DNA from: Alphaproteobacteria bacterium
GTDB taxonomy: Bacteria > Pseudomonadota > Alphaproteobacteria > Bin95
NCBI GenBank assembly: GCA_965205265.1
Contig: CBDBGH010000003.1
Location: 5,344,001-5,408,000, forward strand
Direction: 5' to 3'
Length of the DNA stretch: 64,000 nt
A program made the translations under genes and the position numbers. The notes below the pieces were generated by a model. It did no database searches. It was not told where the DNA came from and was given only the letters and a program-made list of their open reading frames with translations. Shown one piece after another: positions 1 to 45,867 of this stretch (position 1 is the stretch's first letter; every line of letters begins with the position of its first letter).

Positions 1-1095
1 GATGCGGGCCGCCTTGTCGAAGCTGCGCGGATGACGGGCGACGGTGTCGGCGCCGTCGAGGATGCGTACCTCCTCCAGTGTCGCGACCACGGTGAGGGTG
101 CGCCGCGTATGGGTATGCGGGACGCTATAGTCATTGAGGTCGAACCTGGCGTAGGGGGTCTTGCCGATCCTGACCTCGACCCTCTCGTCGACGGGGGGCC
201 GGTCGTCGGGCAGCGCCATCAGGGAGCCGCGCTCGCGCTCGAAGGCCTCGCGCACGGTGAGGGAGCGGTCGTCCGGCCAGCGACGGTCGGCGGCGACGCC
301 GTCGCACCAGGCGCGGGCCCGGGCGTTCAGGTCGTCGAGGTCGCGCCAGGCGCGGGCGGCGAAGAAGTTGTCGCGCACATAGCGTATGGCGCGCTCCACG
401 CGCCCCTTCTCGTTGCCGCGCGCGACCGCGACCGGCTTGGGCAGGAAGCGGTAGCGGGCGGCGAAGTCGAGGAGCCGGGGGTTGAACCGGATGGCGTCGC
501 CCTGGCGCTCCAGCACGACGCTCTTCAGGTTGTCGTACCATAGCTCGCGGGGCACGCCCTGCCAGGCCTCGAAGGCCTCGACATGGCCGCGCAGGAAGTT
601 GTCCATCGCGGCATTGAGGTAGAAGTGCAGGAAGATGCGGCGCGAGTAGCTCAGCACCATCACGAAGCCCATCAGCGGGCGCTCCGCGCGCCCGATCCTC
701 ACCTTGCCGAAGTGGGCCCAGTCCACCTGGGCCAGCTCGCCGGGCAGGGTCTTGAGGCGCAGATAGGCCTCGGCCACAGGCCGCGGGCGCTCCGGCGCGA
801 TCATGCGCCGGAAGTGGCTCTGGCTGCCCCGGTAGCCGCGCTCGACCGCCATCTGGTAGAGCCGGCTGGCTGGCAGCCTGGGCCAGACCGCCAGGGTCTG
901 GCGGATGAAGGGCCGGAACGGATCGATCATCGAAGCCCTGCGCCGCCTCTCACGCGCGGGCGCCCCGGCGGCCGCTACCGCGCGCTCGACCGTGCCGTGG
1001 TGGACGCCGAGCTGGCGCGCGATCGTGCCGATCCTCCACTTCTCGGCAAAATACAGCCGCTGGATCTCGGCACGGGTCTGCTTGTCGATCGCCAT
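1..1095 (-). CDS. istA: IS21 transposase IstA (3' end outside window)
   Basis: Own translation: [40 protein letters not shown], then [39 protein letters not shown]; absent from the ORF track because there is no stop in the window. Confidence 0.9.
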
Positions 1096-1096
1096 C

Positions 1097-1531
1097 TCAC
1101 TCCCTTCGCGCCTGGCGCAGGCCCGGATAGACCGCCAGGCCGCAGAACCGACCGCAGCGCTCGCAGCGGAACACCCGGGCGGGACGGTCGGGCCCGAAGG
1201 GCCGGGTTCCGGACCGCCCCGCCGGTATGCGCGCCACATCAGGACGCCGGCGCGCGACGGTCAAAGGGTGATGCGTCACTTTCTGCGCGATGGCCCGAAC
1301 TGCCGGCTGCCGCACACGGCGCCGTTCGCGGTAGCGCCGCTGGCGCTCGGCATGCTTGTGACGGCCCCGGCGGCTGTTCTGGTAGCGCTGCCCCGCAAGG
1401 CGCACCGACCGACGCCGCGCCCGCCCGCTGCAACGCGGCGAACAGTAGATATGGCCAGAGTCGCAGCGCCGGCAGAGAACCACCTGGCGGCGGCACAGGG
1501 CGCAGGTGAACAGGCGGGCGGCGTTCCTCAT
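1097..1531 (-). CDS. Cys-rich, Arg-rich accessory protein immediately upstream of istA (putative zinc-binding)
   Basis: [34 protein letters not shown]...[13 protein letters not shown]; stop lies 1 bp before the istA ATG. Confidence 0.7.
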
Positions 1532-1760
1532 CGCGACCGATGAGAACGGGGTGGACCCACGCCCGGACGCGCACGATACTGCGCTTCCGGGCCGCGCCTT
1601 GCATGGCTCGGGGGGTGCGGCGCCGGTCGTTGCCACCAAGCCAACGGGGCCGGCGCCGCATCGTTCTCAGAAGCCCCAGTCTACCCCCTGCCGCAGCCCG
1701 GGAACGGCCAACCCGGTCGCCAGGACGTCGCCGCCCTCCGGGAGGCGAAAATCTCAACGC

Positions 1761-1817
1761 GACGGGGGCCGAGGACTCCGGTCGGGCTACGCCCTCCTTC
1801 CGTCCTCGGCCCCCGTC
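1761..1817. other. 16-bp perfect stem with conserved 25-nt loop in IS21 left end
   Basis: GACGGGGGCCGAGGAC / GTCCTCGGCCCCCGTC around TCCGGTCGGGCTACGCCCTCCTTCC; same loop at 41662 and 45954. Confidence 0.8.
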
Positions 1818-1990
1818 ATAAACCCGGCCGCGCCTGTCTCACGCTGTTTGTCGTGCGCACCACAAAAGCGCGCTACGCCAGCAAATATGCGCCCTTTATG
1901 ATAATCACCGACACCCGGAGGGAAGCCGCCGGAAGAACGGCGCGCGGTCCGCGTCTGTCGCATCCTTGCGGCGCCTGTGTCCTGCCATCG

Positions 1991-2027
1991 AAAAAAGGAA
2001 GGGCGGCGCAGGAAACGCGCCACCCTT
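1991..2027 (-). terminator. Rho-independent terminator after lipoprotein copy 1
   Basis: Mirror of 12803-12837: AAGGGTGGCGC/GCGCCGCCCTT stem plus T tract. Confidence 0.75.
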
Positions 2028-2084
2028 GTCACGACCGGGAACCGGGCCGGCCTCCCGCATGAACGGGAGCCCGGCCCCGTGCGG

Positions 2085-4733
2085 CTACTCCGTCGTCGGC
2101 GTCTGAAGCTCCGTGCCGAAGGCGCCGACCATCCGGTGGGTGCCGCCGTGTTCGGCCTGGAACTTGCCCATGATCGCGGTCGGATGGTTGCTGCCGTCGC
2201 CGCCATTCTCAACCGTGCCGGGCTTGTCGTCATACAGGTTGGCCACCCAGCTCCCGGCCGGCGCCGCCTTGTTGCCGTTGATCGACCACACCGTCTTTTC
2301 CGTGTTGACGATGTGGCCCTTCTGGGCATCGGTGGCCAAGCTGGGGTCGGTGGTCCAGGCCGCCTTGTTCAACGTCACGCTCCAGTCGTTCTTCATCCCG
2401 TTTTTCAGCCTGAAGTCGTGGATCGTGCCGGTCAGGCCCGTGTCGGCGTTCAGGTTGGCGGTCCCGAACTGGGCCTTCAGCGTGGCCGTCGCCGTGAACT
2501 CGCCACCGCCGCCCTTCTCGTTGAGCGGGTCGTTGATGGCGTACCAGCCGATCGCGGGGCCCTCATAGGTCGCCGCCCTGCCTCGGTTGACGTTCAGGCT
2601 CTTGCCGTCCGTGGCGAGATCGACGCCCCCGCCGACGGACTGGTAGAAGGCGCTGACCGCCGCCGGCATGCCGTCGGCGTCGTTCCGCACCCACCAGCCG
2701 AAGTACATGTAGCTGAGGTCCCTTTCCAGCACCTTCGCGCCCGCGTCGTGGACGAAGTACCAGTCGGCGGACATGAAGTAGCCGCCGAACCCGCCTCCTC
2801 CGACCCCGGTCCCGACCGTGCAGGTGCCGCTTGCGGGGCAGAAGTAGTTGCCCGGCGCGCCGTAGTAGGTGCCGGGGACCTTGATCTCCGCGCCCCCGTC
2901 GGCCGGCTTCGGAGCGGTCACGGACCCTATCCCGACGGTCCACTTGTCGAACGTGGCGGATGCGATCGCCCGGTCGACCCCGGTGCCCAGGGTCAGTCTG
3001 CGCGCGTGTTTTGGGCCGCTGTTGCCGGATACGAACGGCTCGTAGGTCCCCTTGTTGATCCAGTCGGTGTCGTCCTTGAAGAACTTCGCGGCATCCATCG
3101 GGACGACACCCCATCTCTCCAGCGGGCCGCCCTGCCGGTCGTTGTACACCCGGACCTTGTCGGTGACCTTCATGCTGCCGGAGCCGGTGGTCCTTTCGTA
3201 GTGCGTGACGTTCCACCGGCCCACCTTGTCCATGGTCGTGTCGTGCCCGGGGCGCCCCTCCGCGCCGTGCCTGAAGTACACGGCGGTGTGGGTGTTCGCA
3301 GTCGCGATGCTCCCCGCGCCGGCCGCGGGGTCGATGCGGAAGTCCCCCCGCTCGCCCCTCTGACCGGTCGCCTCCGCCGGGGCGTCGTGCTGGCTATCGG
3401 TGATACTGGTGATGTAGTACGGGACGGTCGCGAGGTTGTTCAGCGCGTTCACCGGGGCCGTTGTGTCATCGGACGGACCCATCGCCGCGTACAGCGCCCG
3501 GCCCATCCTGTGCCCGTCCATGCGCGCCGTCTTGGCGTCGCCGAAGGCGTCCTCCTGCAGGGCGAGCCTCGTGCGCAGCAACTCCTTGTTGGCCTCGGGG
3601 ATGTTCGCGTCCGCGATCGCCGTCTTGGCCGCCGCGATGGCGGCTTCGACGTCGGTCACGGTGCTTTCCTCGGACAGGGACGTGATCCTGGCGATCGCGT
3701 CCATGACCGCCTTAATCTCGCCGTCCGTGATCGTCGTGACGACGCCGGCGATGCGGGTCTCCTCGGCCTTGGCCGCCATGCGGGAGTCCTTGGCCCGGTC
3801 GAGCGCGCCCTGATGCATGGCAATCTTCGAGCGAAGCTTCGCCTTTTCAGACTCGGGGATGTTTGCGCCCTCGATCTCCGCCTTGGCCGCGTCGATGGCG
3901 GCCTGGGCGTCCGTCACGGTGTCGTCGCCGGACGTGTTCGTGACCATCTTGACCGCCTCCATGGCCGCCGCGACCTGGGTGCCCTCGATGTTCTTGACAA
4001 CATGATCGTGGTAATGGCCCTGCGCCGTCTTGATCTGCCCGTCGTCAGCGTCCGCACGGTCCGCCTGAGCCTGATACCGGTCCTTTTCGTCGTCGGTCAG
4101 ATCCTCGGCGCCCGCGATCGCCGCTTTCAGCTCTCTGAGAGCGGCCATGGCGGCGTCGAGCTGCGCCTTCGTGGGCGTCACGCCCGCAAACGCCGCAAGA
4201 GCCATGTCGAGCTTTCCGGAAGCCCCCGAAAGCGCGTTCATCTGCTCTTTCCGGTCCACGGCTGTCTGGGCACTGGCCAGTTGCGTCCGATACGTCGCCT
4301 TGTTGGCATCGCTCACGTCGCCCGCATCGTCCAGCGCCTCCTTGAGAGCCGCGATGGCCGCCTTGGCCGCGGCGAGCTTGTCCGCGTCCGACAGGTCGGA
4401 CGTGTCGACCTCGGCGAGCGCGTCCATCAGCGCCTTCTTCTGATCCATCTCGCGAGCCATCGTCGCCAGCACCGTCTTGCGCGCCGCAGCCGCCGCCTGA
4501 AGCTTCGCGAGCTCCTCGCCGGAAACGCCGGCCGTTGCATCGGCAACGGCCTTGTCGACCGCAGCGTCCGTCGTGGCCGCCTTGATGGCCGCGTCCGCCT
4601 TCTGGTAGGGCGTCTGCGTCTGCGCCGGCATCTGCGTCGTCGTCGACGGCGAGCTTCCGCCCCCGCCGCAGCCGGCAAGCCCCAGAGCCGTGGCGGCCAT
4701 GACCGCGATCGCCCAATGCTTCACAATTCTCAT
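2085..4733 (-). CDS. Large surface lipoprotein with helical repeat stalk and C-terminal TbpB-like beta-barrel (type XI secretion cargo), copy 1
   Basis: Lipobox LAG-C22, Gly/Ser/Thr linker, Ala-rich repeats, C-terminal ATYEGPAIG...FTATATLKAQFG...LTGTI...MVGAFG barrel pattern. Confidence 0.8.
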   Translation of the reverse strand: MRIVKHWAIAVMAATALGLAGCGGGGSSPSTTTQMPAQTQTPYQKADAAIKAATTDAAVDKAVADATAGVSGEELAKLQAAAAARKTVLATMAREMDQKKALMDALAEVDTSDLSDADKLAAAKAAIAALKEALDDAGDVSDANKATYRTQLASAQTAVDRKEQMNALSGASGKLDMALAAFAGVTPTKAQLDAAMAALRELKAAIAGAEDLTDDEKDRYQAQADRADADDGQIKTAQGHYHDHVVKNIEGTQVAAAMEAVKMVTNTSGDDTVTDAQAAIDAAKAEIEGANIPESEKAKLRSKIAMHQGALDRAKDSRMAAKAEETRIAGVVTTITDGEIKAVMDAIARITSLSEESTVTDVEAAIAAAKTAIADANIPEANKELLRTRLALQEDAFGDAKTARMDGHRMGRALYAAMGPSDDTTAPVNALNNLATVPYYITSITDSQHDAPAEATGQRGERGDFRIDPAAGAGSIATANTHTAVYFRHGAEGRPGHDTTMDKVGRWNVTHYERTTGSGSMKVTDKVRVYNDRQGGPLERWGVVPMDAAKFFKDDTDWINKGTYEPFVSGNSGPKHARRLTLGTGVDRAIASATFDKWTVGIGSVTAPKPADGGAEIKVPGTYYGAPGNYFCPASGTCTVGTGVGGGGFGGYFMSADWYFVHDAGAKVLERDLSYMYFGWWVRNDADGMPAAVSAFYQSVGGGVDLATDGKSLNVNRGRAATYEGPAIGWYAINDPLNEKGGGGEFTATATLKAQFGTANLNADTGLTGTIHDFRLKNGMKNDWSVTLNKAAWTTDPSLATDAQKGHIVNTEKTVWSINGNKAAPAGSWVANLYDDKPGTVENGGDGSNHPTAIMGKFQAEHGGTHRMVGAFGTELQTPTTE

Positions 4734-4791
4734 GAACCCTTCTCCTTTCAGCAGGAACGCCTCGCCGGTCCCCGATGCAAACTCCGGGCAA

Positions 4792-4819
4792 AGTGTAGGT
4801 GGAACGCAGGGCGTGTCAA
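4792..4819 (-). promoter_or_regulatory. Sigma70-like promoter for lipoprotein copy 1
   Basis: Mirror of 10011-10038 (TTGACA-16-TACACT). Confidence 0.6.
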
Positions 4820-4897
4820 CAAACTAAAACACTTCATGCGCCGTTCCCTCATGCGAGCCCCAGCGCAGGCGGAGCATAGGCGGACAGGACGGGAGAA

Positions 4898-6055
4898 TCA
4901 ACAACTCCGGAGCTTCCGCTCGACCGCCACCGCCACCCGCTCGGCGGCTTGGCCGAGGGTCGCGTCGTCGAGATGGACATAGCGGTTCGTCGTGCTGGCC
5001 CGGCGGTGTCCGAGCAGGCGTCCTGCGACATGCAGGCTTTCGCCATTCATGACGGCGTGCGAGGCATGCGCATGTCGCAGGTCATGAAGCCGCGCATCCG
5101 CCACGATCCCGGCCGCATCGCGCGTCGTGGTCCAGAAATAGTGGAGTTCGTTGCTGCCCAACGGCCCGTCTCCGCTCCTGCCCGGAAACACACATTCCCC
5201 GGACGCCGATTCGGCGAGGCCGGCCAGCAACGCCCGCGCCGCTTCGCCCAGCAGAACGTGCCTCGGGCCCGTCTTGGTGTCGGGCAGCGCGAGCCGGTCC
5301 GGCTTGACCTCGCACCAGCGCAGGCGGCGAATCTCCCCCGGCCGGCACCCGGTCAGCAGGAGCAGGCGCACCGCCGCGGCGCAGACCGGGTGTTCGGCCT
5401 CGCGCTCGCGCAGCACCGCGCCCAGCTTCGCCAGATCGTCCGCACCCAGCAGCCGCCCGCGCGGCGGACGCCGGTAGCGGACGATGCCCGTGCACGGGTT
5501 CCCGGCGGCCTCGGGCCGATGACCCCACGCGACGGCGCAGTCGAACATGTTGCGAAGGATGTCATGGGCGCGGTTCGCCCCGCCCGGCCTCCGCCGCCCG
5601 TAGTCGTGGAAGAAGCGGGCAATGTCGGCCCGCACGACCGCGCCGACGCGCAGATGGCCGAGCGCGGGCAGGATGGCGCTGTCGAGGTAGCTCAGGGTCG
5701 CCTGCACCGTGGACGGCTTCCAGGACGGGGCGCGCCGCTCGACATATTCCACGGCGAACTTCGCCAGCGTCGGGCCGGAAGCGGGAAGGGGCAGAGAATC
5801 GCCGACGCCCTTCTCGCGGGCGAGGAAGGCGAGCGCCGCAGCGCGCGCCCGGTCGGCCTTTACCGCCTCCGGCCTGCCGAGCGTGACCCGGCACGGCTTG
5901 CCGTCGCGCCGGAAGCGGAACACCCAGGATCGCGCGCCGTTGGGCTGGACGCGCAGCATGAAGCCCTGAAGGGCGGTATCGTGGACGGCGTATTCGCGTT
6001 CGCGCGGACGGGCCGCGAGCGCGAGCGCATCGGTCAGCCGGGCGCGTTCGGTCAT
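4898..6055 (-). CDS. Tyrosine recombinase Int2 (N-terminal arm-binding-like domain)
   Basis: MTERARLTD start overlaps Int1 stop (ATGA); TGCRPGE, DTKTG, HDLRH, LLGH, TTNRY catalytic set intact. Confidence 0.92.
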   Translation of the reverse strand: MTERARLTDALALAARPREREYAVHDTALQGFMLRVQPNGARSWVFRFRRDGKPCRVTLGRPEAVKADRARAAALAFLAREKGVGDSLPLPASGPTLAKFAVEYVERRAPSWKPSTVQATLSYLDSAILPALGHLRVGAVVRADIARFFHDYGRRRPGGANRAHDILRNMFDCAVAWGHRPEAAGNPCTGIVRYRRPPRGRLLGADDLAKLGAVLREREAEHPVCAAAVRLLLLTGCRPGEIRRLRWCEVKPDRLALPDTKTGPRHVLLGEAARALLAGLAESASGECVFPGRSGDGPLGSNELHYFWTTTRDAAGIVADARLHDLRHAHASHAVMNGESLHVAGRLLGHRRASTTNRYVHLDDATLGQAAERVAVAVERKLRSC

Positions 6056-7203
6056 CGGTCCGCCTCCCCGCCGTCGAGCATGGCGGCAAGGCCGCGCGAG
6101 ACCCGGTTCGCGGCCTCGAACACGGAGCCCTCGGCAAGGTGCGCATAGCCGAAGGTGGTCTGGATGTCGGCATGGCCGAGCAGCCCGGCGACGATGCGCA
6201 GGCCCTCGCCGCCGCCGACCGCGACCGCCGCATAGCTGTGGCGGAGATCGTGAATGCGCAGCGTCGGCAGACCCGCCGCCGCGCGGACCGCGTTCCATGC
6301 CCTGTCCACCGTCGCAGGGCCGCCGCAGGGAGACGCGAACACCCACGGGCAGTCGTCGCGCCGGGGTTGCGCCGCGAGCACGGCGCGGGCGGGCGATGCG
6401 AGCCGGATCGTGCGCGGACCGGTCTTGCTGTCGGGCAACACAACACGGTCGCCGTGGACATGCTCCCACCTGAGCCGCAGAGCCTCGGACTTGCGCGCGC
6501 CGGTATGGAGCAGGAAGCGCAGCGCGGCGACGGCGACCGGCCATTCCGCTTCCGCGCCGTCGAGCGCCCGCCCAAGCGCGGCGAACTCGTCGTCCGTCAG
6601 GTAGTGCGCCTCGAAGCCGGTCCTGCGCCGCCGCAGCCCCTTGCACGGGTTGGAGTCCTCGCGCCGCAGGCCGAGCGCCTCCGCGTGCTTCATCATCGAC
6701 GACAGCACCGCCAGCGCCCGGTTCGCCGATCCCGCCCGCCTGGCCGACAGATCGTCGAACCAGTTGTGCACATCTTTCGCGCCGATCGAATCGACGCGCC
6801 GACCGCCAAACACGGGCAGGATGAAGCGGTTCATGCCGTCCGCGTGCGCGCGCCGCGTCGCCGGCTTCCAGCGTTCGGCGCAGTCGGCGAGGAACGCCGG
6901 CGCGAACGTCCGCACCGTCGGCACCGTCGCCGGTGCGCCGCCCGTCTCCGCATCGGCGAGCAGCGCTCGCGCCGCGTGCCGCGCATCCTCGACCGTCAGT
7001 TCGTCGAGCGCGCCGAGCGTCCGCCTGACGACGGAGCCGCCCGCGCGCCGGTGCACGATCCATGTCTTGCGCCCTTTCGCCCGCACCCGCAGGCCGAGGC
7101 CCGGCGCGGCGCTGTCCCACAGCACGGCCTCGCGCCCGTCCGCAGCAGCGAAGGCGCGCGCCCGCGCCTCGGTGATCTTCGTCCTCTTCGTTCCGTTCGG
7201 CAT
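6052..7203 (-). CDS. Tyrosine recombinase Int1
   Basis: MPNGTKRTKIT...LWDSAAPGLGLRV; TGARKSE, DSKTG, HDLRH, LLGH, TTFGY. Confidence 0.92.
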   Translation of the reverse strand: MPNGTKRTKITEARARAFAAADGREAVLWDSAAPGLGLRVRAKGRKTWIVHRRAGGSVVRRTLGALDELTVEDARHAARALLADAETGGAPATVPTVRTFAPAFLADCAERWKPATRRAHADGMNRFILPVFGGRRVDSIGAKDVHNWFDDLSARRAGSANRALAVLSSMMKHAEALGLRREDSNPCKGLRRRRTGFEAHYLTDDEFAALGRALDGAEAEWPVAVAALRFLLHTGARKSEALRLRWEHVHGDRVVLPDSKTGPRTIRLASPARAVLAAQPRRDDCPWVFASPCGGPATVDRAWNAVRAAAGLPTLRIHDLRHSYAAVAVGGGEGLRIVAGLLGHADIQTTFGYAHLAEGSVFEAANRVSRGLAAMLDGGEADR

Positions 7204-7414
7204 CTTCCGACCCCTTCCCTTGTCTGCCGGTCGCAGGAGCCCCCGTTGGGGAACACCCAGGACACGCCGGGGAACGGCGTCGGGTTCGAAGATCGGAAGG
7301 GCCGGAAGTGCCGCACTCAAACGCCGCGCGGGCTGCAAGCCATTGTCAGAACTGGCCTTGCGGCGCTTCGCGGATGCGGGGGCGGAGTGATGATTTCTAC
7401 GCCCTTCGGCGCGT

Positions 7415-7443
7415 GGTTCTCACACCCGACGCACCCGTGGTGC
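7415..7443 (+). other. att-like recombination site (inverted partner 14356-14384)
   Basis: GGTTCTCACACCCGACGCACCCGTGGTGC versus reverse complement of 14356-14384: 26/29, first 19 bp identical. Confidence 0.75.
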
Positions 7444-7620
7444 AGAGAGCGAGACCCGGCCGACCTTCAACGGTCGAGAGTTTTCCGTTGCACGACAAGG
7501 GGTTGGGGCCGGGTCCGGCCTCCGGCCGCGAGCCTGTGCGCAGGCCGCGTTGTCCGTTCGGAAACGCCGTTTCGTTCCCCCGGAACGGGCGGCATCCCAG
7601 GGAACGGATCCGGAGGCCCC

Positions 7621-8751
7621 ATGCGCATCCATGCCACCATCGACGAACGGACGGCCAACAGGCCGTTCGAGCAGCGCCGGAAATCCCGCAACGGCATCAC
7701 CGTCATCGACCGGGATCTGCCCGCCTTCGGCCTCAAGGTCGCGAAAGGCGGGGCAAGGTTCTTCCATGTCCTCGTCGGGGGAAGGACCGTCCGTCTCGGC
7801 TCCCCCGGCGACATGACCGCCGCCGAGGCGAGGGAGAAGGCGCTTGCCGCCATCGCGAAGGCCAGGGACGACAAGGAGGCCGGTCCCCTGTTCACCGACT
7901 TCGCAGCCGAGTTCATGCGCCGCCAGGGGCGGCGCTGGAAGCCGTCCACGAGGACAGGCAACGCCCACCTGATCGACCGCTACCTCGTCCCCTTCTTCGG
8001 TGCGATGCGCGTCCCGCAGATTGGCCGCGCCGACGTGCGGCGCTGGTTCGACGCCATGAGCGGCACGCCCGGCAACGCCAACCGGACCCTGCCGGTGCTC
8101 TCGGTGATGATGCGGCAGGCCGAGTTGTGGGACCTGCGCCCGCAGGGATCCAACCCCTGCCGCAACATGCGCCGCTACCGGACGAAGCCGAGAGAGCGGT
8201 TCCTGTCCGTGGACGAACTCAAGCGCCTCGGCTTCGTGCTCGACCATGCCGGGGACAGGCAGGCCGCCGCCGCAATCCAGCTCCTGCTGTTCACCGGCGC
8301 GCGCTCGTCCGAGATCGCCGGCCTGCAATGGGACTGGATCCGCGATACCCGCGCGGTCCTGCCCGACAGCAAGACCGGGCCGAAGGCAGTCCAGCTTCCG
8401 CCGCCTGCAAGGGCGGTCCTCAACGCCCTGCCGCGCAGGGGGCGCTACGTCTTCCCCAACGGGAGGGGCGACGGGCCGATGACCGACCTCGGCCCGCGCT
8501 GGCGGAAGCTGCGCGGCCTCGCCGGGCTCGACGATGTGCGCCTCCACGACTGCCGCCATACCTTCGCCTCCCACGCCGTGATGAGCGGCCTCGACCTCTA
8601 CACCGTCGGCCGTCTGCTCGGCCATGCCGACACCGCGTCCACCGAACGCTACGCCCATCTCGCCGACGGACATGTCCGCGCCGCCGCCGGGCGCATCTCC
8701 GGCATCGTCCACGATGCCATGACCGGCAGCGGGAAGGAGGACGGACGATGA
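7621..8751 (+). CDS. Tyrosine recombinase Int3
   Basis: MRIHATIDERT...DRDLPAFGLKV; TGARSSE, DSKTG, HDCRH, LLGH, STERY. Confidence 0.92.
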   Translation: MRIHATIDERTANRPFEQRRKSRNGITVIDRDLPAFGLKVAKGGARFFHVLVGGRTVRLGSPGDMTAAEAREKALAAIAKARDDKEAGPLFTDFAAEFMRRQGRRWKPSTRTGNAHLIDRYLVPFFGAMRVPQIGRADVRRWFDAMSGTPGNANRTLPVLSVMMRQAELWDLRPQGSNPCRNMRRYRTKPRERFLSVDELKRLGFVLDHAGDRQAAAAIQLLLFTGARSSEIAGLQWDWIRDTRAVLPDSKTGPKAVQLPPPARAVLNALPRRGRYVFPNGRGDGPMTDLGPRWRKLRGLAGLDDVRLHDCRHTFASHAVMSGLDLYTVGRLLGHADTASTERYAHLADGHVRAAAGRISGIVHDAMTGSGKEDGR

Positions 8752-9932
8752 GCGGGGGCAGGCGCCGCATCCGGCTGACCGTGAAGGCCATCGCCGCCGC
8801 CAGGCCGACGGAACGGGAATACACCCTCTGGGACAAGCTGCTGGCGCATTTCGGGGTCCGGGTGCAGCCTTCGGGAGTGCGCTCCTACATCGTCCAGACC
8901 CGCGTCAACGGGCGCATGCGCAAGATCACCCTCGGCCGCTTCCCCGAACTCTCCCTCGACGCCGCCCGGCGGGACGGCGCGGCCGCGCTCGCCCGCCTGT
9001 GGGGCGGCGAGGACATGGCGCCGCCGCGCAGGACCAGGGCGCCGCTGTTCCGCGACTTCGCCGCCCGCTACCGCGAACGGCGGAAACACCGCTGGAAGCC
9101 ATCCTCTCTGGAGACCTTCGACATCTACATGCGGAACCGCCTGATGCCGCATTTCGACAGGCTCCGGCTCGACGCCATCGACCATGCCTGTGTCTCGGCA
9201 TGGTTCGACGCCGCCAGCGTCGACCGGCCCGGCGCGGCCAACCGCGCCTTCGAGATCCTCCGCGCCATGCTCGCGACGGCCCGCCAGTGGGGCGACCTCG
9301 GCGAGCATGTCCCCGACGCCTGCGCCAACATCGCCAGGAACCCGCGGCGGCCGGTCGCCCGCCATCTCGACCGTGCGGAGCTCAAACGCCTCGGCGCGGT
9401 GCTGGACCGGCGCCGGGAGGACCACCCCTGGCCGGTTGCGGCCATCCGCCTGCTGACGCTCACCGGAGCGCGACTCTCCGAAATCCTCGACCTCACATGG
9501 GACGAGATCGGGGAACTGGACGAGGACGGCGCCAGCGCCCGGCTGGCCGACACCAAGACGGGCCCGAGGCACGTTCTGCTGGGCGAAGCGGCGCGGGCGT
9601 TGCTGGCCGGCCTCGCCGAATCGGCGTCCGGGGAATGTGTGTTTCCGGGCAGGAGCGGAGACGGGCCGTTGGGCAGCAACGAACTCCACTATTTCTGGAC
9701 CACGACGCGCGATGCGGCCGGGATCGTGGCGGATGCGCGGCTTCATGACCTGCGACATGCGCATGCCTCGCACGCCGTCATGAATGGCGAAAGCCTGCAT
9801 GTCGCAGGACGCCTGCTCGGACACCGCCGGGCCAGCACGACGAACCGCTATGTCCATCTCGACGACGCGACCCTCGGCCAAGCCGCCGAGCGGGTGGCGG
9901 TGGCGGTCGAGCGGAAGCTCCGGAGTTGTTGA
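8748..9932 (+). CDS. Tyrosine recombinase Int4 (C-terminal ~127 aa identical to Int2)
   Basis: ATGA overlap with Int3; LWDKLLAHFGVRV, TGARLSE; identical to Int2 from DTKTG onward. Confidence 0.92.
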   Translation: MSGGRRRIRLTVKAIAAARPTEREYTLWDKLLAHFGVRVQPSGVRSYIVQTRVNGRMRKITLGRFPELSLDAARRDGAAALARLWGGEDMAPPRRTRAPLFRDFAARYRERRKHRWKPSSLETFDIYMRNRLMPHFDRLRLDAIDHACVSAWFDAASVDRPGAANRAFEILRAMLATARQWGDLGEHVPDACANIARNPRRPVARHLDRAELKRLGAVLDRRREDHPWPVAAIRLLTLTGARLSEILDLTWDEIGELDEDGASARLADTKTGPRHVLLGEAARALLAGLAESASGECVFPGRSGDGPLGSNELHYFWTTTRDAAGIVADARLHDLRHAHASHAVMNGESLHVAGRLLGHRRASTTNRYVHLDDATLGQAAERVAVAVERKLRSC

Positions 9933-10010
9933 TTCTCCCGTCCTGTCCGCCTATGCTCCGCCTGCGCTGGGGCTCGCATGAGGGAACGGCGCATGAAGTG
10001 TTTTAGTTTG

Positions 10011-10038
10011 TTGACACGCCCTGCGTTCCACCTACACT
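10011..10038 (+). promoter_or_regulatory. Sigma70-like promoter for lipoprotein copy 2
   Basis: TTGACA (10011) -16 bp- TACACT (10033), AT-rich tract upstream, AAAGGAG RBS near 10082. Confidence 0.65.
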
Positions 10039-10096
10039 TTGCCCGGAGTTTGCATCGGGGACCGGCGAGGCGTTCCTGCTGAAAGGAGAAGGGTTC

Positions 10097-12745
10097 ATGA
10101 GAATTGTGAAGCATTGGGCGATCGCGGTCATGGCCGCCACGGCTCTGGGGCTTGCCGGCTGCGGCGGGGGCGGAAGCTCGCCGTCGACGACGACGCAGAT
10201 GCCGGCGCAGACGCAGACGCCCTACCAGAAGGCGGACGCGGCCATCAAGGCGGCCACGACGGACGCTGCGGTCGACAAGGCCGTTGCCGATGCAACGGCC
10301 GGCGTTTCCGGCGAGGAGCTCGCGAAGCTTCAGGCGGCGGCTGCGGCGCGCAAGACGGTGCTGGCGACGATGGCTCGCGAGATGGATCAGAAGAAGGCGC
10401 TGATGGACGCGCTCGCCGAGGTCGACACGTCCGACCTGTCGGACGCGGACAAGCTCGCCGCGGCCAAGGCGGCCATCGCGGCTCTCAAGGAGGCGCTGGA
10501 CGATGCGGGCGACGTGAGCGATGCCAACAAGGCGACGTATCGGACGCAACTGGCCAGTGCCCAGACAGCCGTGGACCGGAAAGAGCAGATGAACGCGCTT
10601 TCGGGGGCTTCCGGAAAGCTCGACATGGCTCTTGCGGCGTTTGCGGGCGTGACGCCCACGAAGGCGCAGCTCGACGCCGCCATGGCCGCTCTCAGAGAGC
10701 TGAAAGCGGCGATCGCGGGCGCCGAGGATCTGACCGACGACGAAAAGGACCGGTATCAGGCTCAGGCGGACCGTGCGGACGCTGACGACGGGCAGATCAA
10801 GACGGCGCAGGGCCATTACCACGATCATGTTGTCAAGAACATCGAGGGCACCCAGGTCGCGGCGGCCATGGAGGCGGTCAAGATGGTCACGAACACGTCC
10901 GGCGACGACACCGTGACGGACGCCCAGGCCGCCATCGACGCGGCCAAGGCGGAGATCGAGGGCGCAAACATCCCCGAGTCTGAAAAGGCGAAGCTTCGCT
11001 CGAAGATTGCCATGCATCAGGGCGCGCTCGACCGGGCCAAGGACTCCCGCATGGCGGCCAAGGCCGAGGAGACCCGCATCGCCGGCGTCGTCACGACGAT
11101 CACGGACGGCGAGATTAAGGCGGTCATGGACGCGATCGCCAGGATCACGTCCCTGTCCGAGGAAAGCACCGTGACCGACGTCGAAGCCGCCATCGCGGCG
11201 GCCAAGACGGCGATCGCGGACGCGAACATCCCCGAGGCCAACAAGGAGTTGCTGCGCACGAGGCTCGCCCTGCAGGAGGACGCCTTCGGCGACGCCAAGA
11301 CGGCGCGCATGGACGGGCACAGGATGGGCCGGGCGCTGTACGCGGCGATGGGTCCGTCCGATGACACAACGGCCCCGGTGAACGCGCTGAACAACCTCGC
11401 GACCGTCCCGTACTACATCACCAGTATCACCGATAGCCAGCACGACGCCCCGGCGGAGGCGACCGGTCAGAGGGGCGAGCGGGGGGACTTCCGCATCGAC
11501 CCCGCGGCCGGCGCGGGGAGCATCGCGACTGCGAACACCCACACCGCCGTGTACTTCAGGCACGGCGCGGAGGGGCGCCCCGGGCACGACACGACCATGG
11601 ACAAGGTGGGCCGGTGGAACGTCACGCACTACGAAAGGACCACCGGCTCCGGCAGCATGAAGGTCACCGACAAGGTCCGGGTGTACAACGACCGGCAGGG
11701 CGGCCCGCTGGAGAGATGGGGTGTCGTCCCGATGGATGCCGCGAAGTTCTTCAAGGACGACACCGACTGGATCAACAAGGGGACCTACGAGCCGTTCGTA
11801 TCCGGCAACAGCGGCCCAAAACACGCGCGCAGACTGACCCTGGGCACCGGGGTCGACCGGGCGATCGCATCCGCCACGTTCGACAAGTGGACCGTCGGGA
11901 TAGGGTCCGTGACCGCTCCGAAGCCGGCCGACGGGGGCGCGGAGATCAAGGTCCCCGGCACCTACTACGGCGCGCCGGGCAACTACTTCTGCCCCGCAAG
12001 CGGCACCTGCACGGTCGGGACCGGGGTCGGAGGAGGCGGGTTCGGCGGCTACTTCATGTCCGCCGACTGGTACTTCGTCCACGACGCGGGCGCGAAGGTG
12101 CTGGAAAGGGACCTCAGCTACATGTACTTCGGCTGGTGGGTGCGGAACGACGCCGACGGCATGCCGGCGGCGGTCAGCGCCTTCTACCAGTCCGTCGGCG
12201 GGGGCGTCGATCTCGCCACGGACGGCAAGAGCCTGAACGTCAACCGAGGCAGGGCGGCGACCTATGAGGGCCCCGCGATCGGCTGGTACGCCATCAACGA
12301 CCCGCTCAACGAGAAGGGCGGCGGTGGCGAGTTCACGGCGACGGCCACGCTGAAGGCCCAGTTCGGGACCGCCAACCTGAACGCCGACACGGGCCTGACC
12401 GGCACGATCCACGACTTCAGGCTGAAAAACGGGATGAAGAACGACTGGAGCGTGACGTTGAACAAGGCGGCCTGGACCACCGACCCCAGCTTGGCCACCG
12501 ATGCCCAGAAGGGCCACATCGTCAACACGGAAAAGACGGTGTGGTCGATCAACGGCAACAAGGCGGCGCCGGCCGGGAGCTGGGTGGCCAACCTGTATGA
12601 CGACAAGCCCGGCACGGTTGAGAATGGCGGCGACGGCAGCAACCATCCGACCGCGATCATGGGCAAGTTCCAGGCCGAACACGGCGGCACCCACCGGATG
12701 GTCGGCGCCTTCGGCACGGAGCTTCAGACGCCGACGACGGAGTAG
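10097..12745 (+). CDS. Large TbpB-barrel surface lipoprotein, copy 2 (identical to copy 1)
   Basis: Identical 882-aa translation; directly upstream of a Slam gene. Confidence 0.82.
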   Translation: MRIVKHWAIAVMAATALGLAGCGGGGSSPSTTTQMPAQTQTPYQKADAAIKAATTDAAVDKAVADATAGVSGEELAKLQAAAAARKTVLATMAREMDQKKALMDALAEVDTSDLSDADKLAAAKAAIAALKEALDDAGDVSDANKATYRTQLASAQTAVDRKEQMNALSGASGKLDMALAAFAGVTPTKAQLDAAMAALRELKAAIAGAEDLTDDEKDRYQAQADRADADDGQIKTAQGHYHDHVVKNIEGTQVAAAMEAVKMVTNTSGDDTVTDAQAAIDAAKAEIEGANIPESEKAKLRSKIAMHQGALDRAKDSRMAAKAEETRIAGVVTTITDGEIKAVMDAIARITSLSEESTVTDVEAAIAAAKTAIADANIPEANKELLRTRLALQEDAFGDAKTARMDGHRMGRALYAAMGPSDDTTAPVNALNNLATVPYYITSITDSQHDAPAEATGQRGERGDFRIDPAAGAGSIATANTHTAVYFRHGAEGRPGHDTTMDKVGRWNVTHYERTTGSGSMKVTDKVRVYNDRQGGPLERWGVVPMDAAKFFKDDTDWINKGTYEPFVSGNSGPKHARRLTLGTGVDRAIASATFDKWTVGIGSVTAPKPADGGAEIKVPGTYYGAPGNYFCPASGTCTVGTGVGGGGFGGYFMSADWYFVHDAGAKVLERDLSYMYFGWWVRNDADGMPAAVSAFYQSVGGGVDLATDGKSLNVNRGRAATYEGPAIGWYAINDPLNEKGGGGEFTATATLKAQFGTANLNADTGLTGTIHDFRLKNGMKNDWSVTLNKAAWTTDPSLATDAQKGHIVNTEKTVWSINGNKAAPAGSWVANLYDDKPGTVENGGDGSNHPTAIMGKFQAEHGGTHRMVGAFGTELQTPTTE

Positions 12746-12802
12746 CCGCACGGGGCCGGGCTCCCGTTCATGCGGGAGGCCGGCCCGGTTCCCGGTCGTG
12801 AC

Positions 12803-12837
12803 AAGGGTGGCGCGTTTCCTGCGCCGCCCTTCTTTTT
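12803..12837 (+). terminator. Rho-independent terminator between cargo and Slam
   Basis: AAGGGTGGCGC-GTTTCCT-GCGCCGCCCTT-CTTTTT. Confidence 0.75.
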
Positions 12838-12876
12838 CGATCGGGAGCCCGGACGGCAAGCGATGCGACAGACGCG

Positions 12877-14151
12877 ATGAGACCTTTCCGGTTCCTTGTT
12901 CCCGTGCTGGCGGGGCTGTCGGTCCTGCTTGTTGCGGCGCCCGTCGCGCGCCCCGCCCTGGGCCAGGATGCGACCGACATGCGCTTCCGGGCCGGGATGG
13001 AGGCGCTTGCCGCCGCCGATGCCGCACCGGACCGGGAAGCCCGCGAGGGCAGGCTCGACGAGGCGGTCGCCGCCTTCCGGGCCATCCTGGTGGACCGCCC
13101 GGAGCTGGTGCGGGTGCGTCTCGAACTCGCCCGCGCCTTCTTCCTGAAGGAGGAGGACACGCTGGCGCGGCGGCATTTCGAGCAGGTGCTGGCGGGCGAC
13201 GTGCCCCCGGCGGTCGCCGCCAACATCCGGCGCTTCCTCGACATCATCCGCGCGCGGCGGCGCTGGGAGGCGTGGTTCGGGGCGGCCATCGTCCCGGACA
13301 GCAACCTCAACGCCGCCTCGGGCGAGCGCACGGTCTTCCTCGACACCCCGTTCGGCCGGCTGCCTTTCACCCTGGACGATCCCGCGAAGCCCGAATCCGG
13401 CCTCGGCGTCTCCTTCTGGGGCGGCGGCGAATACCAGCATCCGCTGAACGACCGCCTGCGCCTGCGCGCCGGGGCGGACGCCAGCGTCCGGGAATACAGG
13501 GGCGGGGAGTTCGACCGGCATTTCCTTGCCGCCCATGTCGGCCCGCGCTGGCTGATCGACGCCCGCACCGAAGCGAGCCTGCTGGCGACCGCGGACCGGC
13601 AATGGACCGCCGGCCGGCCCGAGACCGACAGCGTCGGCCTGCGCCTCGAAGGCGAGCATCTGCTGACGCCGCGCCTCGCGCTCTTCGCCCGCGCCGGCGC
13701 CGCCCGGCGCAACTGCCGCGGCTGCGACTGGCTCGACGGCCCGGTGGGCGACGTCTCGCTCGGCGCCAACTGGGCCGCGCTGACCATCCTGCGCCTCGGC
13801 GGCAATGCCGGCTGGAGCTGGGCCCGCGCCAGGGCCGAACACTGGCGCAACAGCGGCCCGCGGGCGAGCCTCGGCGCCACGCTGGCGCTGCCGGCCGGCT
13901 TCACGCTCGGCCTGCGCGCCGCCCTGCAGCGCACCGACTATGAGGGCGGCGGCGCCGCCCACCGCACCATCGACCGCAAGCCGCGCCGGGACGACACGCG
14001 GACCCTCTCGGTCTCGGTCCACAACCGCGCCGTGACCGTGCTCGGCTTCAGCCCCCGCCTCTCCCTCATCCGCGAGGAGCGCAAGACCAACGCCCAGGCC
14101 CTCGACTACCGGCGCAACCGCGCCGAACTCAGCTTCGTGCGCCAGTTCTGA
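12877..14151 (+). CDS. Slam / DUF560 outer-membrane translocon (type XI secretion)
   Basis: Signal peptide, TPR-like RVRLELARAFF...ARRHFEQVL, PDSNLN motif, amphipathic beta strands, terminal Phe. Confidence 0.85.
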   Translation: MRPFRFLVPVLAGLSVLLVAAPVARPALGQDATDMRFRAGMEALAAADAAPDREAREGRLDEAVAAFRAILVDRPELVRVRLELARAFFLKEEDTLARRHFEQVLAGDVPPAVAANIRRFLDIIRARRRWEAWFGAAIVPDSNLNAASGERTVFLDTPFGRLPFTLDDPAKPESGLGVSFWGGGEYQHPLNDRLRLRAGADASVREYRGGEFDRHFLAAHVGPRWLIDARTEASLLATADRQWTAGRPETDSVGLRLEGEHLLTPRLALFARAGAARRNCRGCDWLDGPVGDVSLGANWAALTILRLGGNAGWSWARARAEHWRNSGPRASLGATLALPAGFTLGLRAALQRTDYEGGGAAHRTIDRKPRRDDTRTLSVSVHNRAVTVLGFSPRLSLIREERKTNAQALDYRRNRAELSFVRQF

Positions 14152-14384
14152 ACGAACCCGGCCGCGGCGCGCCGAAAGGGGCCGGCCGTCCGGAAAGGGT
14201 GGACCCGACCCGCAGGACATGCCACAACGTGTCCTGGACAGGGCCCCGGGCTCGCGGGCAGGAGGACAAGGAAGCGGCAGGCGGGAAGACCGGAAACCGT
14301 TGCAAAACAAGGGTTCCCCGGCAACCTCCCGCAACGCCAACCGGAAAGCGAAAAGGCATCACAGATGCGTCGGGTGTGAGAACC
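14152..14384 (+). repeat. Non-coding module end with att-like site at 14356-14384 (near-identical copy 48461-48687)
   Basis: Direct repeat of 48461-48687; contains CAGGACA..TGTCCTG and CCGTTG-N5-CAAGGG dyads; ends GATGCGTCGGGTGTGAGAACC. Confidence 0.85.
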
Positions 14385-38620: not shown

Positions 38621-39227
38621 TTCCGTTTCCGGCGCGGAGCTCGTGAAGCTTCAGGCGGCGGCTGCGGCGCGCAAGACGGCGCTGGCGACGATGGCTCGCG
38701 AGATGGATCAGAAGAAGGCGCTGATGGACGCGCTCGCCGAGGTCGACACGTCCGACCTGTCGGACGCGGACAAGCTCGCCGCGGCCAAGGCGGCCATCGC
38801 GGCTCTCAAGGAGGCGCTGGACGATGCGGGCGACGTGAGCGATGCCGACAAGGCGACGTATCGGACGCAACTGGCCAGTGCCCAAACAGCGGTGGACCGG
38901 AAAGAGCAGATGAACGCGCTTTCGGCTGCTTCCGGAAAGCTCGACATGGCTCTTGCGGCGTTTTCGTATAGCGCGACAATCTGGGTGAGAGCCGCGCGTC
39001 AATCAGGATGAGATTCCCCGGCGGCATCGGCGAGTTGATGATTGTCGCGCGGGGCGCGGATTGCAAGCGGTTTCGGATTTTGATTGTCGCGGCGCGACAA
39101 ACAAGGTTTTCGGAGAGCGTTTTGATTGTCGCGGGGGGGCCGTCGGGTCGGAGAAGAGACGGCCCGCGGAGGCGATTCCCGCGGGCCGTGAGTGTTGTGG
39201 CCGCTGGGCCGATCTGGCGGCAGCGGT

Positions 39228-41575
<2,348 letters not shown>

Positions 41576-43519
41576 CTACTCGGAAAAACGTCACCGTTCG
41601 CCCAGCCGACCGACCCCGCCAGAAGGTCCAGGAAAAATTTTTTGAGGCGGCGGCCCGGAACTCCGGTCGGGCTACGCCCTCCCTCCGTTCCGGGCCGCCG
41701 CCTTCCCCCGTCTCATCCTGATTGTCGCCAGCGTCTCAAGCTGATTGTCGCGCCGCAGTTTTCGGGCGTGACGCCCACGAAGGAGCAGCTCGACGCCGCC
41801 ATGGCCGCCCTCAGGGACCTGAAAGCGGCGCTCACGGGCGCCGAGGATCTGACCGACGACGAAAAGGACCGGTATCAGGCTCAGGCGGACCGTGCGGACG
41901 CTGACGACGGGCAGATCAAGACGGCGCAGGGCCATTACCAGGATCATGTTGTCGAGAACATCGAGGACATCCAGATCGCGGCGGCCATGAAGGCGGTCGA
42001 GATGGTCACTGACACCTCCGACGAAGACACCGTGACGGACGCGCAGGAGGCCATCGACGCCGCCAAGGAGGAGATCAGCGGCGCAAACATCACTGATGCT
42101 CAGAAGGCGACGCTCCTTGCGGCCATTAACATCCATCAGGGTGCGCTCGACCGGGCGAAGCTCTCCCGCACCAGGTACACGGAAAATCAGACCCGCATCG
42201 CCGGCGTCGTCAAGACGATCACGGACACCCAGATCAAGGCGGTCATGGACGCGATCGAGAAGATCACGAACACGTCCGACGACAGCACCGTGACGGACGC
42301 CCAGACCGCCATCGACGCGGCCAAGAAGGCGATCACGGACGCTCAGCTCCCTGACGCCAACAAGGAGACGCTTCGCAGGCAGCTTGACGACCAAGAGACG
42401 GCCTTTAACGAAGCCAAGATAGATCGTGAAGTCGCGATGATCACGGACGGCGAGATCAAGGCGGTCATGGAAGCGATCGGGATGATCACGGCCCTGTCCG
42501 AGGAGAGCACCGTGACCGACGTCGAAGCCGCCATCGCGGCGGCCAGGAAGGCGATCGCGGACGCACAGCTCCCTGACGTCAACAAGGAGGCGCTTCGCGC
42601 GAGGCTCGCCGCGCAGGAGACCGCCTTCGGCGCCGCCAAGATGGACCGCGCGGACGGGGCCAAGAGGGGCAAGGCGCTGCACGCGGCGATGGCCGGCCCT
42701 AAGGCGACGACGGCACCCAATAACGCGCTGACAAATCTCCAGTCCGCCCCGTACTACGTCACCGCACTCGTCGATTCCGGGAATGACCTCGGGACCGGCG
42801 AAGCCATCGGCAGACGGGGTGACTTCCGGATCGATCCCGCAGAGGGCGCGGGGGTGATCCCGGACGGCAATGCGCACAAGGCCGTGTTCTTCAGGCATGT
42901 CGGCAGTGAGCACATCGTCGATGAGGACGACGATCGGTTCGGTCAACCGCACTCCACGGCCCTCCCGAACGTCCCGAAGAAGGGGAAGTACCCGGAGAAC
43001 TTCGATACCGGTGAACATGGCAACGTGGGCACTGAGTGGTACGTCACGGACTTCACCAGGACCACCGGCTCCGGCGACGATCGGGTCACCGACAGGGTCC
43101 GGGTGTACAACGACAAGGTGGGAGGCCCGCTGACGGATACGAGGAGCGGGTACCTTCTCGAGAAGGATCTCGCGACGTACTTCGCGACCAGCGAGAAGCC
43201 GGTGAACGCGGGGGACCTCGACACGGACAAGCGCTCGCTGTCCCTGGGCACCGGGGTCTATAGCGCGACAATCTGGGTGAGAGCCGCGCGTCAATCAGGA
43301 TGAGATTCCCCGGCGGCATCGGCGAGTTGATGATTGTCGCGCGGGGCGCGGATTGCAAGCGGTTTCGGATTTTGATTGTCGCGGCGCGACAAACAAGGTT
43401 TTCGGAGAGCGTTTTGATTGTCGCGGGGGGGCCGTCGGGTCGGAGAAGAGACGGCCCGCGGAGGCGATTCCCGCGGGCCGTGAGTGTTGTGGCCGCTGGG
43501 CCGATCTGGCGGCAGCGGT

Positions 43520-45867
<2,348 letters not shown>

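Follow-up and report, generated by a model that had tools for sequence, protein, structure and literature searches.

The window analysed here is a stretch of 64,000 nucleotides (positions 5,344,001 to 5,408,000 of contig CBDBGH010000003.1) from an alphaproteobacterial genome, a metagenome assembly of 5.7 Mb (GCA_965205265.1; G000) with a marker-gene contamination of 7.3%. Its left part carries two divergent pairs of tyrosine integrase genes on either side of a short attachment-like core, together with genes for a surface lipoprotein and its putative exporter Slam, and it is this arrangement, which we read as part of a family of integrative islands, that is described below. Since the G+C content of the window is about 70%, long spurious open reading frames (ORFs) are common; genes were chosen by third-position G+C and then checked against Pfam. 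For comparison, G005 denotes another genome in the genus of the window and L-numbers denote loci fetched from other assemblies, with L019, L021 and L040 stemming from one of these, referred to as the second assembly.

On the plus strand, IntA (7621-8751, 376 amino acids (aa)) is followed by IntB (8748-9932, 394 aa), and on the minus strand IntA' (7203-6052, 383 aa) is followed by IntB' (6055-4898, 385 aa). In each pair the first gene is coupled to the second by an ATGA overlap. All four proteins matched Phage_integrase (PF00589, E 5e-15 to 1e-19), and IntB, IntA' and IntB' also matched Arm-DNA-bind_3 (PF13356, DUF4102; E 5.5e-12 to 2e-9), the corresponding match of IntA lying under the curated cut-off (18.9 bits versus 27). 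Residues R228, K251, H309, R312, H335 and Y344 (IntA numbering) were invariant in a four-way alignment, in which IntA-IntB and IntA'-IntB' proved to be different proteins with 41-42% identity (IntA versus IntA' 42%). An earlier note on this DNA had proposed ATGA-coupled pairs of arm-binding integrases with an intact R-K-H-R-H-Y set, and the overlaps, the six residues and the profile matches, that of IntA to PF13356 being sub-threshold, bear this out. By these features the four proteins are arm-binding tyrosine integrases of the DUF4102/IntSXT type, a subgroup characterised in PMC8138268.

Downstream of IntB lies a cassette whose order agrees with that given in the earlier note: promoter, lipoprotein, terminator, Slam and a conserved end. 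A sigma-70-like promoter (TTGACA-16-TACACT, 10011-10038, plus strand; one site found versus 0.3 expected from shuffles) precedes a gene for a surface lipoprotein of 882 aa (10097-12745, plus strand) with the lipobox LAGC, a repeat-rich N-terminal half and a C-terminal lobe resembling fHbp and TbpB. A terminator-like hairpin with a T-run (12803-12831, plus strand) separates it from Slam (12877-14151, plus strand, 424 aa), which is composed of a SlipAM/DUF560 barrel and TPR repeats. The most likely start of Slam is the ATG at 12877, because the hairpin lies ahead of it. An identical lipoprotein of 882 aa (lipoprotein') is encoded on the minus strand at 2085-4733. Secretion by Slam is also named type XI. 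As the earlier note had expected for DUF560/SlipAM, Slam matched PF04575 over model positions 1-288 of 288 (E 1.5e-18); its match to TPR_Slam (E 2.8e-6) was under the cut-off of that model. Two tandem 258-nt repeats with 63-85% identity were also seen in the lipoprotein gene, at 10832-11351 and again at 42209-42692, in its repeat-rich N-terminal half.

No Pfam family was matched by the lipoprotein in a Pfam scan. Its 35 relatives are essentially all unnamed metagenome proteins, none with a Pfam domain or an informative name; one of them carries the label 'hypothetical protein'. An AlphaFold model of residues 480-882 (mean predicted local distance difference test score 79.7) aligned with fHbp over 170 residues (Z 15.3, root-mean-square deviation 3.1) and further with hemophilin (Z 12.7), the TbpB C-lobe (12.1), HpuA (11.0) and PmSLP (10.9), the last being a Slam-dependent lipoprotein; fHbp and TbpB were also the top matches in Foldseek. 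The TbpB-like barrel that had been read from the sequence is thus reproduced by the predicted fold, but not by any Pfam domain. With its lipobox, a predicted C-terminal handle and eight-stranded barrel lobe, and its position directly upstream of Slam, the protein appears to fit a Slam-dependent surface lipoprotein.

The attachment core common to the island family reads TGCGTCGGGTGTGA(C)GAACC. Its 14-nt att-like part, TGCGTCGGGTGTGA, occurs exactly at 7420-7433 (minus strand), where it marks the end of the left unit and, in the reverse reading, also that of the IntA-IntB island, and at 14366-14379 (plus strand), where GAACC follows up to 14384. The 5.7-Mb genome holds 10 exact copies and 13 when one mismatch is allowed, compared with about 0.07 exact copies expected by chance according to our own composition estimate, which is not a tool output. 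Three arms adjoin these two cores: a proximal arm of 216 nt (7204-7419, minus strand) that runs from the core to the start of IntA' and contains a core-like inverted motif, an arm of 187 nt of the IntA-IntB island type (7434-7620, plus strand) that recurs in G005, and a non-coding distal arm of 214 nt between Slam and the core (14152-14365, plus strand). The proximal and distal arms have two exact 10-mers in common, GTTCCCCGGC and CGTGTCCTGG; as candidate arm-type sites they are a weak lead given the G+C content. An Rfam scan of five loci (E ≤ 0.01) detected no RNA gene at the conserved arm beside the core.

A complete canonical unit was found at G000:C3:3507663-3514645. It measures 6,983 bp including both cores, which are in direct orientation, and its order is core, 216-nt arm, IntA', IntB', promoter, lipoprotein, terminator, Slam, 214-nt arm and core, so that IntA' is its first and IntB' its second integrase. 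Locus L040 of the second assembly contains a second complete unit between direct cores. Beyond the four genes no further long coding-type ORF was noted in the 6,983-bp unit, small ORFs lying outside this search, and hence no Xis-like gene was noted either. Neither tRNA nor tmRNA genes were detected in the window by ARAGORN, and the 88 such genes of the genome are all further than 6 kb from every integrase pair; a tRNA gene as integration target was therefore rejected.

The copies of this unit share their ends and differ in what lies beyond them. In the copies at 3.514, 4.734 and 5.320 Mb, similarity to the IntA'-IntB' unit ends at 7433-7435 and a different flank follows in each; four kinds of left flank were found in G000 and three in another assembly. 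On the right, four different kinds of flank were found: a backbone resembling an integrative and conjugative element (ICE), an unrelated flank at 5.166 Mb, a third arm type at 4.708 Mb and an ABC-transporter gene. A duplicate of 12.4 kb (5.154-5.166 Mb) matches the window at 99.9% identity until it reaches the core with GAACC; inside this 19-nt segment (14366-14384) the two sequences part. In all, the ends of the unit meet at least seven different junction types, each breaking at the 14 nt of the core, and the att-like end proposed in the earlier note thus coincides with synteny breaks.

From these ends, repeats and flanks we conclude, with a probability of roughly two in three (0.68), that the window contains the head-to-head junction of two members of a site-specific integrative island family with paired integrases, which share one core. 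The two integrases would act together on the core and integrate a circular form into core-like sequences. Each integrated island would keep a core at both ends and thereby offer landing sites to its relatives; since a core would be retained at each end, arrays could form in which the Slam unit, the ICE-like backbone and other islands pile up, and recombination between any two direct cores could release one or several modules. We infer a joint, possibly heteromeric, action of the two integrases because their genes are coupled, are frequently paired and cluster by position in a phylogeny (see below), and because no Xis gene was noted.

Site-specific insertion is best seen at a third copy of the cassette. 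This 5'-truncated copy (38624-48688, plus strand) consists of lipoprotein pieces, a Slam gene (about 47188-48460, plus strand), the arm and the core variant TGCGTCGGGCGTGC at 48675-48688, the region from 12848 to 14378 being homologous to it at 97.6%. Two identical 2.8-kb insertion sequence (IS) copies (38967-41757 and about 43259-46049) split its lipoprotein gene. The recurrence of the distal half at 38624-48687, which had been noticed before, is thus real. The 2.8-kb IS carries an IstB_IS21 gene, as seen for the IS at 39228-41575 of the window, and is present in more than 40 copies in the genome.

The core variant abuts a fragment of an ABC-transporter gene (48689-49377, about 230 codons), which is cut on its 5' side by the island array and on its 3' side by another insertion; the open frame directly after the core variant is the middle of the gene. 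The intact gene encodes a protein of 980 aa with ABC_membrane and ABC_tran domains, adjoins a C39-peptidase ABC transporter and contains the site at about codon 332. A match to this stretch was found in 13 of the 17 genomes of the genus, and seven loci (G012, G014, G007, G002, G009, G006 and a paralogue at 4.21 Mb in G000) read uninterrupted through GATGC followed by GTCAGGCGTGCGCGCC. At the same base in G005, the upstream part of the gene gives way to an arm and core of the IntA type, which brings the count to seven uninterrupted versus two interrupted loci. This junction is the best evidence for site-specific insertion, and an empty site of the kind named in the earlier note is probable for one junction, of which only the right side is present. 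As a separate observation, the segment 49294-49581 matched the Ruegeria small RNA Trans44 in Rfam (121.6 bits versus a gathering score of 108), and an open frame overlapping this match looks AlpA-like by eye only.

The two sides of the window are related by an exact inverted repeat of 3,296 nt (1993-5288 versus 9542-12837, 100% identity). Its inner ends lie within IntB and IntB', and upstream of that point the two genes differ; the inner end is CCGACACCAAGAC (9542-9554, plus strand; mirrored copy at 5276-5288), which codes for D-T-K-T. The 187-nt arm upstream of IntA occurs together with the core 11 times in G005 (78-81% identity), and in all 11 copies similarity stops at the core or at most 21 nt past it, so IntA-IntB belongs to an island type in which the integrases lie at the opposite end with respect to the core. 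The IntB genes of G005 are 82% identical to IntB of the window over residues 4-286 and only 72-75% identical over the full length; as this drop implies a dissimilar C-terminus, the C-terminal third of IntB is foreign to the IntA-IntB island type. This third is common to IntB', which is conserved at 97% over its full length in the second assembly. IntB is accordingly composed of 264 N-terminal codons of the IntA-IntB island type and, from 9542 on, of IntB' DNA, and the plus-strand copy (7621-14384) is a hybrid of two island types joined at this position. The two cores flanking the plus-strand copy are, moreover, inverted relative to each other. For both reasons the proposal that 7621-14384 is a complete element had to be given up. 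The leftward mirror image described from 7203 holds exactly for 1993-5288, but its integrases are a second pair and not a repetition of the first.

The canonical Slam unit of the window is the minus-strand copy, which runs leftward from 7433 and is broken by two IS insertions. The right part of an IS of about 4.0 kb (1-1913, minus strand), coding for a transposase with rve, Mu-transpos_C_2 and helix-turn-helix domains (Pfam), sits between the terminator of lipoprotein' and the start of Slam'. Thirteen other genomic copies of this IS end at 1913-1943, in agreement with the earlier claim that an IS cuts the left unit at 1913. For the label IS21 given in the earlier note, which would call for an IstA transposase followed by the IstB ATPase, the window offers the transposase alone, its partner gene lying outside. 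Slam' resumes outside the window at C3:5340447-5341718, and a 2.8-kb IS interrupts the distal arm that follows, 15 nt short of the core. Next to another copy of this IS, at 4.708 Mb, lie the 18 missing nucleotides together with the core and the third arm type. The left unit was once complete.

With arms that are 100% identical and a contamination of 7.3%, the head-to-head structure and its exact inverted repeat might be suspected to be an assembly artefact of a repeat-rich metagenome genome. We regard this as very improbable, since the same order, another IntA-type pair, core and IntA'-IntB', was found in L021 and L040 of the second assembly, and G000 contains an 80%-diverged relic of it at 0.4385 Mb. 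Integration of the Slam unit into the core that ends a resident island would be expected to yield this head-to-head order.

To the right of the second core follows the ICE-like backbone (14742-36568, minus strand), which encodes YspA, DUF4326, DUF7146-Toprim, SSB, a Strawberry-notch-like helicase of 1,626 aa, DUF6573, a ParB_N protein of 817 aa and DUF2201. It shows no visible mating-pore module, and about ten related copies with 60-100% protein identity are present in the genome. Three near-identical places were found in which a backbone starts right at the core, and another two backbones, which are diverged, lie behind cores with one mismatch; because it begins directly at the core, the backbone is regarded as a neighbouring module of the array. 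A third conserved arm type was found behind the core at 4.708 Mb in G000 and also in four other genomes. The core thus separates modules of several kinds, which places the units in arrays. A 707-aa ORF with a Walker A motif, similar to a type IV coupling protein by our own reading, is followed by a Replic_Relax gene at 50097-53179; the two may be the mobilisation module of another island.

The same arrangement could mean that the 7-kb unit is not autonomous and forms the terminal module and cargo of a larger island resembling an ICE or an integrative and mobilizable element (IME), in which the large composite moves and the cores are relics of accretion. The backbones that begin at cores would fit such a composite, as would the 34.3 kb between two direct cores at 14380-48674, which hold the backbone and the third lipoprotein-Slam copy, a block of about 11.6 kb at 2.546-2.558 Mb in which a pair and backbone genes end together in a core variant, and the coupling-protein-like ORF and Replic_Relax gene at 50-53 kb. 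A unit bounded by two cores was found, however, not only beside the backbone but also at the unrelated flank at 5.166 Mb, the third arm type at 4.708 Mb and the ABC-transporter gene, and the integrase pairs of G005 share only about 2.6-2.8 kb while their neighbours differ. On this balance we consider movement of the composite alone unlikely, though it is an account of some weight. At the left end of the pair module in eight G005 copies, similarity ended variably 0-300 nt past the second integrase and no repeat was found.

Beyond the Slam unit, integrase pairs are abundant. In G000, 36 of the 43 integrase-family matches form 18 adjacent same-strand pairs, which by our count fall into 11 distinct lineages; two stretches with four integrases in a row each consist of two abutting pairs. 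Downstream of ten other pairs and of another IntA'-IntB' copy, the cargo included a type ISP restriction-modification enzyme, a reverse transcriptase, an AAA-ATPase/PD-(D/E)XK protein, a 1,533-aa fn3/PKD protein, TraE, an S24 peptidase, metabolic genes and many IS. Inverted near-identical copies of an integrase pair with a 1,674-aa type ISP restriction-modification gene were observed at G000:C3:3792300-3800350 and 5436900-5444900. At E ≤ 1e-40, 15 of the 16 other genomes of the genus gave 5 to 51 integrase matches; for the two sister genera, 1/10 and 0/10 genomes had matches. A tblastn search of 72,556 plasmids returned 30 records, and among the matches listed, 10 of 25 had two or more places. 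Five plasmids, from Aurantiacibacter, Leisingera, Tritonibacter, Polymorphobacter and Novosphingobium, were inspected, and in all five the integrase genes overlap by 4 nt and are annotated merely as integrases ("site-specific integrase"); no Slam was found near the pair in any of them.

A tree was calculated for 44 integrases, near-copies included, in addition to a smaller one. The position within the pair, mapped on the larger tree, required 2 changes for 'second' and 4 for 'first' genes, whereas shuffled labels needed about 15. The main clade contains 16 'second' genes, all of them in one group (SH-aLRT 92) to which those of the Aurantiacibacter and Leisingera plasmids belong, and IntA' grouped with the first (99) and IntB' with the second gene (93) of Leisingera. 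Because first and second genes cluster by position, an old pair that was inherited together fits these data. The integrase pair appears to be a general module with many cargoes that is wide in Alphaproteobacteria, Slam being one among many. The element proposed in the earlier note, in which pair and Slam belong together, thus stands as a recurrent association, but the pair is not specific to Slam.

How often the two do occur together was followed through the Slam genes. G000 contains 11 of them, and six have integrases or a fragment upstream, all six deriving from one unit type. Close relatives of Slam were compared at 31 loci of 15 other assemblies, and the fetched flank contained an integrase pair at 14 of these loci, which come from 4 assemblies. 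Pairs beside lipoprotein-Slam cassettes, which the earlier note had proposed to look for, thus exist in 4 of the 15 assemblies sampled. One assembly holds five copies of the Slam unit with 92-97% protein identity. G005 contains at least six copies of a unit of 7.2-7.5 kb in another order, in which lipoprotein and Slam are followed by the integrase pair on the opposite strand. The right end of the 7.5-kb unit is sharp and core-like (GGTGCGCTC, three variable nucleotides and GGTGT); a matching repeat was not found at its left end. A lipoprotein with a near-constant signal peptide and lipobox was recognised by pattern upstream of Slam in 24 of 30 loci, two of them doubtful. The association of pair and Slam is therefore real and recurs, although it is not an exclusive one. 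In L026 of G005 (about 6518-6620), and also in L027, L029 and L033, the lipoprotein-Slam unit is preceded by a run of GCCTCGC heptamers whose number varies among unit copies from about 2 to more than 14; it could act as an expression switch by slippage.

Several observations weigh against an island family moved by its own integrases. Exact repeats in a metagenome assembly with this level of contamination are possibly affected by the assembly itself. Many copies are 99-100% identical and lie in an IS-dense region, so part of the copy number is expected to reflect segmental duplication rather than integration. Only one junction type, the right junction of the third copy, has an empty site; a search of G000 for the 5' half of the interrupted ABC gene gave nothing, leaving no full attL/attR pair around a known target, and the two interrupted ABC genes may go back to a single old insertion, with later changes in its array. 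In the tree, near-copies overstate the independence of the position clustering, and the plasmid branches are long. No arm-core-arm circle junction or precise unit deletion was detected in public data, which consist of short assembled contigs and are blind to rare forms. Six public runs hold the unit in such contigs; those of four runs, compared with the canonical copy, gave no joint that skips the roughly 6.97 kb between the cores, a result that for short contigs counts neither for nor against excision. Loose contig ends at 9112 and 9142 of L052 were considered as an empty site and discarded, as they fit other contexts of the multi-copy arm. Of the earlier proposal of a site-specific element of about 7 kb, a four-gene unit bounded by cores in several contexts and two assemblies is thus retained, but no circle was found; a circular form and present-day activity would have to be assumed.

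Finally, L019, L021 and L040 have an internal deletion of 327 nt in IntA' in common, the other two of the five copies in this assembly not being covered at IntA'. Because five copies exist despite the deletion, copies of this kind would have spread by other means or with integrases acting in trans. Such a deletion is what would be expected if the integrases were inactive passengers, if homologous recombination, segmental duplication and IS rearrangement were the sole source of the copies, and if the 14-mer were simply part of the repeat; the exact 3.3-kb inverted and 12.4-kb direct duplications, the more than 40 copies of the 2.8-kb IS and the clear IS-mediated breaks in the left unit point in the same direction. 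Recombination of that kind does not, however, account for at least seven junction types that all break at the same 14 nt, for a gene that is uninterrupted in seven loci and has the core-like sequence exactly at the break, or for catalytic residues that are all kept and first and second genes that cluster by position across different orders. We therefore hold passenger integrases to be quite improbable.

A second recombination hot spot was seen within the integrases themselves. Inside IntB-type genes, four events occurred at CCCGACACCAAGAC, which codes for the conserved D-T-K-T. One is the hybrid join in the window (9542-9554, mirrored at 5276-5288), and another is a copy at 4.736 Mb with a different C-terminus. 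At G000:C3:5323029-5323061 IntB' is cut, and beyond the cut come an A+T-rich arm and a pair of integrase genes that belongs to a second clade. At G000:C3:3491273-3491304 another A+T-rich arm leads into the same 14 nt and then the C-terminus of IntB'. The events at 5.323 and 3.491 Mb resemble the left and right junctions of a second-clade island inserted into an integrase gene, each seen once per side, and are taken as a lead only.

Taken together, an island family with paired integrases and a shared core could be extended to a broader scheme, which we put forward tentatively and consider doubtful as a whole. In it, the coupled pairs would be an obligate two-subunit recombinase of the lambda type with a division of labour like that of XerC/XerD and without Xis, and would constitute a sixth, undescribed group of tyrosine-recombinase elements, widespread in Alphaproteobacteria. 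One core at both ends would generate integron-like arrays of self-mobile modules that shuffle and amplify lipoprotein/Slam cassettes in this genus, and second-clade pairs would use the D-T-K-T stretch in the integrase genes of rival islands as attachment site.

Multi-recombinase elements such as Tn554, RITs, GInts and SEs are few and poorly understood, and a two-integrase module of ordinary arm-binding integrases would add a new, simple model of paralogous tyrosine recombinases that share one reaction. Its termini here are clear, its core is defined, an uninterrupted target exists, and genomes of one genus hold dozens of copies each. As the pair has gone unremarked on plasmids of Sphingomonadales and Rhodobacterales, annotation pipelines probably miss the whole island class. 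A cassette of lipoprotein and exporter could travel as a self-contained 7-kb unit and multiply within a genome, which makes multiplication of the Slam unit a plausible route to surface-protein diversification. The earlier note had called the architecture undescribed as far as known, and neither coupled arm-binding integrase pairs nor Slam on such an element turned up in the literature searched, which did not extend to subscription journals and supplements; the large family of two-integrase islands is apparently undescribed.

Among the closest known systems are P4- and SXT-type islands and IMEs, which likewise have an arm-binding integrase at one end, short direct core repeats, a specific target and arrays at one site, island accretion being named in PMC13651849. 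They differ in that Int and Xis are used there, whereas here two position-clustered integrases occur, no Xis-like gene was noted and the target is not a tRNA gene. With XerC/XerD they share two paralogous tyrosine recombinases paired on one core site, and the position-specific clades suggest a similar division of labour; XerC/XerD, in contrast, lack an arm-binding domain and serve chromosome dimer resolution, and joint action is here only inferred.

Mobile elements with more than one tyrosine recombinase gene are also represented by Tn554, SEs, GInts and RITs. According to PMC10214605 and PMC5385486, Tn554, SEs (IntA-Tfp-IntB-Srap), GInts (ginABCD) and RITs (RitABC) all require several such genes, which form an operon at one end. 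Three or four proteins are required there, including a non-catalytic Tfp/GinC or a small TnpC/Srap/GinD, or else a recombinase trio; one recombinase is large in Tn554 and SEs, and RITs have inverted ends of 34 bp, whereas here two similar arm-binding integrases of 376-394 aa occur and the 7-kb unit has no third conserved gene. A RIT element was rejected since the unit has two recombinase genes and not three, runs of four genes being abutting pairs. Tn554, SEs and GInts were likewise set aside, as no further long coding-type ORF was noted in the 6,983-bp unit and both of its integrases have 383-385 aa. The BIM modules of Cupriavidus resemble the pair as two-gene modules with a tyrosine recombinase, but according to PMC3414803 their second protein is conserved, of unknown function and SMC-like, not a recombinase, which ruled them out as a known equivalent. 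Five groups of tyrosine-recombinase transposons are recognised in a 2023 paper, ICEs and IMEs counted, and none of them consists of two ordinary arm-binding integrases with no third conserved gene (PMC10214605).

The cassette itself follows known Slam systems in that a lipobox lipoprotein gene lies directly upstream of a DUF560 Slam gene and the C-terminal lobe matches known Slam substrates; it differs by its small lipoprotein family (35 relatives), the long repeat-rich N-terminal half and its location on a small integrative unit. Like integrons, finally, the arrays consist of modules separated by one recombination site, but unlike in integrons the modules can carry their own integrases, the cassettes measure at least 7 kb and the site is not an attC-like folded one.

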